From a virus (taxonomy: Duplodnaviria > Heunggongvirae > Uroviricota > Caudoviricetes), in the IMG/VR virus record IMGVR_UViG_2541047913_000007: a DNA stretch of 64,000 nt. One strand, 5' to 3'. The notes under the pieces were generated by a model. That model saw nothing but the letters and a program-made list of their open reading frames with translations, was not told the origin of the DNA and did not search any database. Both the position numbers and the translations under genes were made by a program. Position 1 is the first letter of the stretch. Each line of letters opens with the position of its first letter. Below are positions 6,503 to 14,884 of this stretch, in pieces.

Positions 6503-9500
6503 TTAATCCACTCCCACTTTTTTGTTGTACTCGCGGTTAAAGCGATCCACGGCAACCTTCATATCCCGCTCTACCGATTTCACCATCGCCGCCTGCTGCG
6601 CCAGACTGAGAGAACTGTCGGCATAAATGGCATCGCGCTGTTTGCGCAAATCCTTCAGTCTCTTCCGGGTATCCTGCATAAGCCCGTTCATCAACAATTT
6701 TCCGTTGTTCTCGTCAATGAACGCCGTTCTTTCTGCACCGGTCAGACTCTTCAGCTCTGCGTGATACTGCGCAACCTCTGTCATCCGGTCGTACATCTTC
6801 TGCTGGTCTGCATACGGCATCACCTCACCCGAAATTTTCCCCAGGAAGGGCACCTGCTGCTCCGGTATATCAATACCGTTCAGCGATTTCACCGCCGCAT
6901 CTGTGGTTTTGGAAATGAAGCGCCCTGTCCCTCCGGAGATATAGTCAATCCAGAATTTCAGCGATTCCGGTGTGATATCCACCGCGCCGGGACGATACTG
7001 GCTGCCACCTGAGAACGCATTCAGCCAGGATGCAAACGCCTTGTACGCCTCAGGCGTTGAACGTCTGCCCAGTTGGCTGTCCGGTTTCGGTGTGCCAAAT
7101 GGCATGTTCTCCTGGTAAATCTGCGCCCCCATGAAGTTTTCATTCATGGCAAGGTTCGCAAACGGACGCAGAATGGTCGGCGCTGCATTTTTCAGCAATG
7201 CCCCGGACAGTGTTTCCGACGTTTCACTGCCCACAGGACTGAATGCCCCCAGGATACCACCGACAACATTACCGGCAGCACGTGAAGCAGTCAGGTCGCC
7301 CGCTGCCACACCTTCAGCAGTATGCCCGAGCAGGAAGAAAACGTTGTACCCGTAAGGCAGAGGAATACTCCAGTACTCTCCGGCCTTGCCCCCGAACACC
7401 GATTTCATAATGACGAGGTTACGCTCTTTCACATGAGACGGCACCTTGTCATACCAGTTAACCCCGTCATCATCCTCCCCCGCAACACTGCGGTTAAGCG
7501 AGCCAAGCAGATAACCCGCTCCCACAGCTGCAAGCGCGATTTTCTGCGGTACATTGAGATTCTTCCAGCGAAGGCGCTCCGGTAACGGCCCGTCGCCATT
7601 AAGATGTCCGAGCGTTCTCACCAGGTTTGCGGTCCCCTGAATGCTGGCGTTGGCAAACATATACAGCGAGTTCATCAGCGCTCCCTGCTCACCACGACGG
7701 TTAAAGTTCACCGTCATGTTTTTGGCAAGAGATGCCGCCTGCTGGCGTGACAAACCGGCATCACGGGCGTGTTTATAGGCAGAAAGACGCAGAGCGTTTT
7801 CAACCGCGCCGTTGGCATCCTCGACCAGGTTCAGGAACGAATGCCATGCACCGATACTCTGGCCTTTCCATCCTCCCTTCGCCAGCGATACAAGGCGATC
7901 CATTTCCTTCTGCTGGCCTTCAAGGTCACCCATGTTAAACCAGCCGGTTTTACCTCCATCCTCAACAAACTCTTTCCACACCTTCTGCCACTGCGCACCG
8001 TTGCCCGTGAGGGTTTTACCACGCAGACTGGCGTATACGGCAGACATGGCAGACCGGCTGTCTTTCACCACAGCCAGGGCGGATAAGTTATCCAGCCCTT
8101 TCAGTTTACCGTCGCTCCTTCCCTGCTCAGCCTTCAGGTTCATCACCGCCGTCTGCACGTCACGGATGAAGTTACTGACCAGAAATTCCGGGTTATACGA
8201 CGTGTTCACCGTTGCCAGGAAACGGTTAACTTTCCCCAGCGTACGGATTACGGCGTTACTGGTTTCCGGCCCCATGTTCTTCATCGCACGCATCAGGCGC
8301 GGGTCATGGAGTTTGATGTAGTAAGTTTTGCCGTCCTTTTTGGTGGTGAAGTAGCGATCCGCCATCATTGCCATAGGCACCGGACGTTCAACAACTTCGC
8401 GACGGGTTTCGCCGGTTTCCGGATCAACACGCTCTGCAATCGCCCGCATGGTGTCCGGTTTGTCATCAGTGAATACCTGCCAGTAATCCTTATCGGGATT
8501 ATCCTGCACCAGTTTCAGGAAGGCGTTACCCACTTCGTTTTTGCGATTGCGGATCAGCGATTCGCTCAAATCCTGTATCGCCTGAGTGGAAGGAGACTGT
8601 GCGCGGGATGCACGCCCCATGGCCTGCCTGCTTTCACGTCCGCCGATGGTGAAGCCCTTACCTGTACGGGGCAGTGACACCACACCGTCAACATCCTGAC
8701 CTTTCAGGGGAACGTAGTAACGGTAGGCGTTCTGCCAGGCATCCACCACACCGCTCTCTTCCAGTCCGGCCTCACGGATAAGCTCACGGCGACGGGCCAG
8801 CATATCGTCAACAATCCCTGCCAGACGGTCATACTGTGCCTGTTTGCCACTGTTACGCACACGCTGCATGATTTCCGCCGCTTCCGCGTTGGTCATCCCC
8901 GAACCGCCGTCCGGCATTTTCGGGTTGATTTTCGCGATATGCGCGTTACGTTCCGGCGCGTGACGGGCGTAGAGGTACTCATCCAGATCGGCCTGCGCAA
9001 TTTTGTAGTCCGCCAGTAATTTAGCCAGTGGCTGAACGTAGCGCTCCTTCATCACGTTCAGGTCGTTTTCCGCCTTCCCGTGGAAGAGTTCTTCCGCCAT
9101 ATAAGCGTTGTTACTGTCGTCTATTTTTCCGCCAGTTTTACGGATATTCTCCTGAACAGCTTTCAGCACCTGGAATTTATCCTGCATCTGGCGCACAAAA
9201 CGCGATGCAATTGTCTCTTCCGGTGTCAGACTGCTGGTACGGGAGTAATACGGCCCCTTGCGAATATCTTCAGGATAGAGTATTTTATCTACAGAGCCGC
9301 GATAAGAACGCTCCTCTTTGGGCAATTGGAGCCCACTGTACTGAGGGTTATCGCGGCTTAATTTCTCCTTCCGGTAAAGCGTTAATCCAGCCATTTCCAT
9401 ACTTTTCAGCTTTTTCCCGTTTTCCGTACCGTAAACAGATGCCACCTTGTTAATTTCCAGACGTTTATCTGTCGCCTTCATATGCACTGCCGAGACGACC

Positions 9501-14884: not shown

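Follow-up and report, generated by a model that had tools for sequence, protein, structure and literature searches.

A giant cysteine-free polyvalent protein of a 933W-type Escherichia coli prophage with predicted core and cargo zincin-like domains

What is the role of a single gene of 8.4 kb that closes the structural module of a short-tailed phage? The question is raised by the virus record IMGVR_UViG_2541047913_000007 (Caudoviricetes), a stretch of 64,000 nucleotides (nt) which we refer to as the window. A sequence-only reading of the window had described one uninterrupted gene at the distal end of the structural module, coding for a multidomain virion protein with two HExxH metallopeptidase-like motifs. 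Gene and position were recovered as described: the open reading frame (ORF) is preceded by a GGAG Shine-Dalgarno sequence and stands last on the late strand. It is the catalogued giant polyvalent protein gene of 933W/phi24B-type short-tailed E. coli prophages and not a new one. Its product is probably a giant internal virion ('ejection') protein, i.e., an encapsidated, ejected and self-processing polyvalent multi-effector. The gene and the parts of its product, in amino acids (aa), are as follows.

6503..14884, minus strand: gene of the giant polyvalent, putative ejection protein; a single uninterrupted ORF with ATG start, 2793 aa, 0 Cys
13595..14407, minus strand: conserved N-terminal domain, aa ~160-430, with a hydrophobic stretch at aa 181-199 and a glycine-zipper-like segment at aa 401-428 (nt 13601-13684)
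12197..13567, minus strand: P/E/Q-rich, probably disordered linker of roughly 450 aa (~440-896); (VP)5 lies at aa 880-889 (nt 12218-12247)
10565..12196, minus strand: LPD5-zincin-LPD1 module, aa ~897-1440, putative optional cargo, with Pfam LPD5 and LPD1
9875..10462, minus strand: core zincin-like domain, aa ~1475-1670, without a Pfam model; conserved Glu E1607 in QAGEFLAHMAEK
9362..9637, minus strand: MuF_C / PBECR domain, aa 1750-1841, predicted metal-independent RNase fold with conserved His1752 and Ser1816
6506..9247, minus strand: conserved C-terminal module, aa 1880-2793, with LPD38 at aa 2476-2681 (nt 6842-7459) and a coiled coil at its end

Full-length matches to the gene were found in 186 phage records at 92-97% nucleotide identity (megablast), all of them from Shiga toxin (Stx)-converting or related short-tailed phages with E. 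coli and Shigella as hosts. Of 5426 complete E. coli genomes, 426 contain the gene, with a full-length ORF in 423. As the ORF is intact in so many phage records and complete genomes, it does not represent an assembly artefact. The best match among the E. coli genomes, strain DETEC-S792, carries a 99.7% identical gene annotated as 'LPD38 domain-containing protein', and across the matches the family is annotated as "LPD5/LPD38 domain-containing protein". The sequence of the window gene makes it a near-identical allele of one that is already catalogued. Its orthologues, phi24B gp47, Stx2-86 gp35 and the giant ORF of VT2-Sakai and 933W (Sepvirinae, Traversvirus), are 92-97% identical to it in nucleotides over the whole gene, have its Pfam domains and, like it, follow the tail genes. 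The prophage in the window appears to lack stx, and in comparison to Stx2-86 gp35 the gene differs in VP copy number and in aa 900-1200. Both the classification as a polyvalent protein (2017) and the proposal of an ejection protein for the phi24B orthologue (2026) are already known. The present analysis refines this picture by distinguishing a core from a cargo zincin, by describing a fixed chassis and by correcting the reading of MuF-C; it further adds an exclusion of cysteine that is family-wide, beyond the Schitoviridae, and a C-terminal module without a solved relative.

Dissection of the protein yielded four Pfam domains and, in the predicted structure, two zincin-like domains. LPD5 (aa 1051-1200, 154 bits), LPD1 (aa 1361-1440, 83 bits), MuF_C (aa 1750-1841, 66 bits) and LPD38 (aa 2476-2681, 165 bits) all score well above cut-offs of ~27, and all four families stem from the survey of polyvalent proteins (Iyer et al. 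2017, PMC5512222). In that survey, zincin metallopeptidases (MPTases), PBECR (MuF-C) and LPD domains are found beside virion genes (Iyer et al. 2017, PMC5512222), as in the giant protein, which joins these disparate domains in one polypeptide and is encoded beside virion genes as the last late-strand gene of a 933W-type prophage. The proposal of a polyvalent virion protein rather than a tape measure is thus supported by the four Pfam domains, together with the presence of an orthologue in virions. Exactly two HExxH motifs are present, where the composition of the protein predicts 0.03 by chance. The two motifs are not equivalent, because the second is invariant in the giants of the family, as expected for a core peptidase, and the first lies in an optional cargo module.

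The first motif, ALAHEWFHSL, has its HExxH at aa 1284-1288 (nt 11021-11035), between LPD5 and LPD1. Landmarks of this domain are HEWFHSLD at aa 1284-1291, a conserved AAAHYEP upstream at aa 1260 and a candidate third-ligand helix, EMAARAFERY, at aa 1375 within LPD1. The whole segment of aa ~897-1440 is homologous from end to end with hundreds of LPD5+LPD1 proteins of 450-650 aa at 37-49% identity, one of which is encoded in a mobile-element context next to PcfJ and a helicase of the Sno type. Conservation across 30 homologues covers AAHYEP...VIN, GxGSLAHEWFHaLDN and KPYWxTxxEMAARAFE. The NCBIfam model CLCA_X matches aa 1182-1437 along almost its entire length (profile positions 3-245 of 250) with 152 bits, under its cut-off of 260. 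The widespread phage-type MPTase signature, a His ahead of the motif and an Asp at the third residue past HExxH (Iyer et al. 2017, PMC5512222), is matched by this first zincin. By homology, the first HExxH is therefore placed in a module that is optional cargo.

The second motif, HEIIHHAMEH, has its HExxH at aa 1551-1555 (nt 10220-10234). The trailing 'MEH' included in the sequence-only reading is not conserved in homologues. The H, E and second His, together with a Glu ~55 residues further on (QxEExLAHxAE), are conserved in close and distant homologues. We examined 16 distant giant homologues for C-termini, cargo and core zincin: the H, E, H and E are invariant in all 16 and lie 996-1263 aa from the C-terminus, the distance in the window protein being 1242 aa. 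Most members show the spacing HExxxH, and a one-residue deletion in the window allele restores HExxH. Iyer et al. 2017 (PMC5512222) described a group of zincins with the HExxxH variant, to which the second zincin of the giant protein belongs. No Pfam model matches this domain in the whole protein or in isolated segments; the search with isolated segments returned only sub-threshold hints of a glycine zipper and of Peptidase_M76. On the strength of this conservation, the second HExxH marks the core predicted peptidase of the giant family.

Structure prediction covered aa 1040-1880 with a mean pLDDT (predicted local distance difference test) of 68. Both HExxH motifs were placed in helices, with a helix and beta strands before them and a helix carrying the conserved Glu after them. 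In domain 1 (aa ~1200-1440, pLDDT 80-95), HEWFH lies in model helix 243-257 after the strands, and EMAARAFE lies in helix 334-352; this order of a beta sheet, the HExxH helix and then a Glu helix is that of a zincin-like fold, as far as sequence and model can tell. Domain 2 (pLDDT 70-87) is likewise predicted to have zincin topology, as its strands are accompanied by an HExxH helix at model residues 503-522 and a Glu helix at 562-576. The model of aa 1040-1880 resembles the endopeptidases MtfA, anthrax lethal factor (LF), Pro-Pro endopeptidase (PPEP) and Spartan, a match that is not assignable to domain 1 or domain 2. Identity to MtfA, LF, PPEP-type zincins and minigluzincins is 11-16%, and no sequence-profile link leads to any PDB entry: neither the whole giant protein, nor the profile of the LPD5-zincin-LPD1 module, nor that of the core zincin found a match in the PDB. 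Zinc binding and peptide-bond hydrolysis are predicted for both zincin-like domains.

The MuF_C domain scores 66 bits against a cut-off of 27.6, which places it in the PBECR group, and the proposed catalytic residues His1752 and Ser1816 are conserved in homologues. MuF-C is a BECR-fold RNase domain (PBECR) according to Iyer et al. 2017 (PMC5512222). The preprint on phi24B names a 'Muf-C metallopeptidase domain' and infers peptidoglycan degradation from MuF-C (10.64898/2026.04.10.717836). We regard the metallopeptidase label as a mislabel, because MuF-C is defined as a BECR-fold RNase and the real zincins are located elsewhere in the protein. From its family membership, the MuF_C of the giant protein is predicted to be an RNase-type domain and not a peptidase.

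Both ends of the protein are conserved more widely than its middle. In an exhaustive HMMER search with aa 1-900 as query, aa ~110-540 matched the N-termini of many proteins of 2000-4665 aa, the conserved core being aa ~160-430 with the glycine-zipper-like segment at its end. More than 100 database proteins have kept the C-terminal 914 aa as one unit (32-78% identity, ~99% coverage), and their N-terminal parts differ, carrying ART-PolyVal, methyltransferases, InPase or none of these. Among sequenced phages, the C-terminal module occurs in Stx phages, ~60-kb Vibrio phages and Bcep22-like phages of Ralstonia and Burkholderia, with weaker matches in Bacillus megaterium and Aeromonas phages. Its AlphaFold model is mostly helical (pLDDT 86, predicted template modelling score 0.83), and no solved structural relative was matched by it. 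Bcep22 gp75 and JC1 gp69, which are virion-associated, have the C-terminal module in common with the window protein (27% identity over 85-87% of the module); they differ in their length of 4500-4600 aa and in their cargo, and their 'DarB-like' label is inapplicable to the window protein.

Among the 16 distant giants, the C-terminus contains LPD38 in seven and LPD39 in eight, and for at least some C-termini other than LPD38, homology to the LPD38-type module is recognisable. The cargo consists of LPD5+LPD1 in six, MuF_C in three, ddrB-ParB in three, InPase in two and a Sno helicase/methylase in one or two. The giant family follows a common plan: a conserved N-terminal domain, variable cargo in the middle, an invariant zincin and a conserved C-terminal module of 900 aa. 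This fixed plan was not singled out in the 2017 survey (PMC5512222); plan and cysteine exclusion were both derived in the present analysis. A Salmonella enterica allele (P0012), 70% identical to the window protein, carries, between LPD1 and the core zincin, an extra insert of ~250 aa that weakly matches a phosphoribosyltransferase; going by the sequence comparison, the insert is an example of cargo swapping among close relatives.

By mass spectrometry, the phi24B orthologue gp47 is an abundant component of purified virions, but it is absent from cryo-electron microscopy and negative-stain density, and the authors propose it to be an encapsidated ejection protein (10.64898/2026.04.10.717836). 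A member of the C-terminal module family in a Bcep22-type phage, JC1 gp69, was detected with 51 peptides in CsCl-purified virions, and the portal, capsid and head-closure proteins of JC1 are homologous to their 933W counterparts. In coliphage PTXU04, knock-down of a 2198-aa LPD38 protein impairs infection.

The giant protein is devoid of cysteine over 2793 aa; cysteine makes up 1.05% of the remaining window ORFs (P ~1.5e-13). The same exclusion was seen in 47 diverse homologues of the C-terminal module (7 Cys in 58,219 aa) and in 28 giant homologues (4 Cys in 72,561 aa), i.e., cysteine frequencies of ~0.006-0.012%. Suppression of cysteine has been published as a hallmark of the ejection operon of Schitoviridae, where it was attributed to passage through the oxidising periplasm. 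Given the virion-located orthologue and the exclusion of cysteine, we propose as most likely that the giant protein enters the recipient cell along with the DNA. Cysteine is also missing from the four late-strand ORFs directly upstream.

14953-16218 (421 aa), 16229-16480 (83 aa), 16490-16936 (148 aa) and 16939-17595 (218 aa), minus strand: four upstream late ORFs, all Cys-free

The 83-aa ORF carries a glycine zipper. None of the four has an annotated function, save a weak 'virion structural protein' PHROG match of the 218-aa ORF. By analogy, we consider them candidates for co-ejected, conduit-forming proteins.

The late operon of phage N4 ends in gp52 (150 aa), gp51 (644 aa) and gp50 (3500 aa), three proven ejection proteins which together contain 0 Cys in 4294 aa, and this end parallels the 148-, 83- and 421-aa ORFs and the giant gene of the window. 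In N4, gp51 and gp52 form an envelope conduit through which gp50 is threaded like 'beads on a string' while its N-terminal domain keeps it anchored. Like gp50, the window protein is a giant, Cys-free product of the last late gene after small Cys-free proteins; gp50 is invisible in virion reconstructions, as is the phi24B orthologue. Both also share the order of an N-terminal membrane-associated domain, a long linker, an enzyme and, at the C-terminal end, a large domain. The traits of the N4 type found here are accordingly cysteine suppression, the terminal position in the operon and, for the orthologue, an internal location in the virion. The two proteins differ in that the window protein has no RNA polymerase domain and N4 gp50 has no LPD38 Pfam match. 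N4 gp50 contains a single HExxH (LIHELVHA) at aa 2228, preceded by a strand-turn-strand-like sequence and located 1273 aa from the C-terminus, in the distance range of the family's invariant zincin (996-1263 aa); it was not detected by the hidden Markov model (HMM) of the family's core zincin.

We offer, tentatively and at somewhat less than even chances, a broader generalization. The giants of 933W-like, Bcep22-like, Vibrio and other podoviruses could share one injection chassis for almost any Cys-free enzyme. This chassis would comprise an N-terminal glycine-zipper domain, as a release protease the invariant HExx(x)H zincin, at a distance of ~1000-1260 aa from the C-terminus, and an LPD38/LPD39 module. 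In evolutionary terms, its distant counterpart would be the N4 virion RNA polymerase.

Beyond what is observed, which comprises identity and domain content, the pattern of conservation, the zincin-like folds of the models, the exclusion of cysteine and synteny, the following course of events can be proposed for the ejected, self-processing protein. It would be made late and packaged within the capsid. At infection, it would be threaded in a loosely folded state via portal and tail into the cell envelope, which would explain the near-total exclusion of cysteine. The terminal modules would serve packaging, envelope passage and membrane anchoring, and the invariant zincin at the boundary between cargo and chassis would cut the chain and thereby free the enzymatic cargo. 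In the first minutes of infection, the cargo, a second peptidase and the RNase, would then act on targets of the host or the phage. The sequence-only reading had compared the protein, by size and composition, with the polyvalent injected proteins of phages that counter host defences; such a role of the protein is conjectural.

Several points weigh against this proposal. Neither for the protein nor for its orthologues does an experiment show ejection, proteolysis, RNase activity or an anti-defence effect, and the phi24B preprint is silent on whether gp47 in the virion is full-length or processed (10.64898/2026.04.10.717836). The hydrophobic segments of the protein are weak, with a Kyte-Doolittle maximum of 1.38 over 19 aa, so that membrane insertion is speculative. 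The MuF_C part of the structural model is poor (pLDDT below 50), and the alignment there is thin. A 'standalone' homologue from Pectobacterium (P0018) is a fragment of a decayed larger gene and therefore lends no support to independence of the domains; another one from Amphritea (P0069) lies in a prophage remnant with uninformative neighbours. Finally, BLASTP, hhalign and a custom HMM found no similarity to N4 gp50, gp51 or gp52, and no homology to the N4 gp50 / DEV gp71 family was recovered. The parallel to N4 is therefore one of analogy and synteny, not of membership.

The phi24B preprint assigns the protein a structural role, in which it builds or lengthens a tube across the periplasm; its 'metallopeptidase' would digest peptidoglycan and so let the tube reach the inner membrane. 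Such a conduit would agree with gp47 being abundant in virions yet unseen in the map, with the requirement of the PTXU04 LPD38 protein for efficient infection, with the conserved terminal modules and their glycine-zipper or weakly hydrophobic helices, and with a C-terminal module that forms a large helical assembly whose fold has no solved relative. We nonetheless consider this account unlikely. The MuF-C domain on which it relies is a BECR-fold RNase domain according to Iyer et al., and the zincin domains resemble protein or peptide endopeptidases (MtfA, LF, PPEP, Spartan) and not cell-wall hydrolases. Pfam searches with the whole protein and its segments returned no lysozyme, transglycosylase, M15 or M23 domain. 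Direct cutting of peptidoglycan is unlikely, because a muralytic domain is missing and the zincins are similar to protein endopeptidases; we hence reject the peptidoglycan-degrading metallopeptidase of the preprint. Moreover, the conduit of N4 is built by the small gp51 and gp52, with the giant as cargo, and four small Cys-free ORFs occupy the equivalent place in the window. A variable enzymatic middle would also be unexpected for a pure conduit. The terminal modules may still contribute to one.

A protein of the P1 DarB type, i.e., a packaged methyltransferase/helicase that shields incoming DNA from type I restriction, is suggested by PHROG 10089 ('DarB-like antirestriction'), which matches aa 2354-2681, and by tblastn matches to Bcep22, Claudette and similar 'DarB-like' phages covering 85-87% of the C-terminal module at 27% identity. 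However, this similarity is limited to the C-terminal LPD38 module. Pfam found no methyltransferase or helicase domain in the whole protein or its segments, and such enzymes are cargo in only some family members, which makes this explanation highly improbable. Least probable by far, to the point of being negligible, is a tape measure, a tail fibre or some other canonical structural protein that lacks enzymatic domains, or else a mis-assembled or decayed ORF. Size and position at the end of the late operon are all that would suggest it. A repeat scan found nothing like tape-measure repeats, just the 33-nt VP array and a weak 10-nt x 2.4 row; Pfam found no tape-measure or fibre match; and the relatives are podoviruses, in line with the short-tailed phage type proposed from the sequence. 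The catalytic motifs are conserved, the polyvalent domains are present, and the ORF is kept at full length in the 186 phages and 423 genomes. The tape-measure, DarB and assembly-artefact readings were therefore rejected on Pfam, repeat and distribution evidence, and the encapsidated, self-processing polyvalent protein is the reading that we retain.

The Pro/Glu-rich linkers and the (VP)5 linker of the sequence-only reading were both found. P/E/Q-rich low-complexity sequence covers ~aa 440-900, and (VP)5 is coded by a perfect 6-nt x 5.5 tandem repeat (12216-12248). The only other tandem repeat in the gene is the weak row mentioned above, which is low-scoring and located at 11743-11767. The VP copies vary between alleles, with five in the window, four in DETEC-S792 and two in phage 86. 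In comparison to Stx2-86 gp35, protein identity is 93% overall and 92-100% along the protein, except for aa 900-1200 (62-74%). This divergent part (window 11285-12184) is the N-terminal half of the LPD5 module. Allele divergence at aa 900-1200 and VP variation suggest recombination or diversifying selection, plus in-frame slippage.

A terminator-like element directly precedes the gene.

14895..14921, minus strand: terminator-like hairpin ACCCGGT-CATTGT-GCCGGGT followed by T7, just before the Shine-Dalgarno sequence and ATG of the giant gene

The GC-rich stem of 7 bp (14921..14902) is followed by T7 and lies 10 nt ahead of the GGAG sequence. Stx2-converting phage 86 keeps the hairpin, with a substitution that strengthens the stem. 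The claim that the gene has its own intrinsic terminator holds for the hairpin and the T-run. A terminator scan across the region found fewer sites than in shuffles, and the RNA fold z-score of the intergenic segment is only -0.88, which is not unusual; terminator function is therefore only plausible. A second GC-rich hairpin, GCCCCG-N10-CGGGGC, lies at 6473-6494 on the minus strand, 9 nt past the giant gene's stop; a T-run is missing, and the terminator scan did not call it.

The late strand upstream of the giant gene carries capsid, portal and tail-fibre genes, and the genes identified in the window include a Phage_capsid_3 capsid, a P22-type portal and a NanS-p-type esterase. The capsid protein of DETEC-S792 is annotated as 'N4-gp56 family'. 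In the RefSeq record of Stx2-converting phage 86, gp35 ('LPD5 domain-containing protein') directly follows tail-fibre genes, Lom and several small hypothetical genes. The relatives of the window phage are podoviruses (Traversvirus, vB_EcoP names). Among the tail-fibre genes of the window lies a 371-aa Cys-free ORF (24069-25184, minus strand) with a YadA-type membrane anchor, as in trimeric autotransporter adhesins. The NanS-p-type esterase gene (40612-42615) has the architecture DUF1737+SASA+DUF6645. In window 40612-46400, no stxA-sized ORF was found upstream of it, and the prophage therefore appears to be stx-negative and 933W-like.

The giant gene is followed by accessory genes and then by the host ynfF region. 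Three accessory genes lie between the giant gene and the prophage end. One has a Panacea (SocA-like antitoxin) domain (5828-6352, minus strand), and an IbrB/ParB_N-like gene (5095-5739, plus strand) is paired with a PAPS reductase/DUF3440 gene (3884-5110, plus strand). Past the accessory genes, an antirepressor gene is followed by host molybdopterin-oxidoreductase sequence, corresponding to the ynfF region in the closest genome. The prophage is inserted beside the ynfE/ynfF selenate reductase genes (window 101-1984).

Shiga toxin genes are spread by Stx-converting phages, which devote ~14% of their genome to the giant protein. If the model of an ejected, self-processing protein is true, this protein would determine the first minutes of infection and the lysogenic conversion of new E. 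coli strains. The Cys-free chassis would then be a general route by which short-tailed phages inject large enzymes, with a bearing on host-range prediction, on the engineering of protein-delivering phages and on the passage of megadalton cargo via a channel of ~35 Å.

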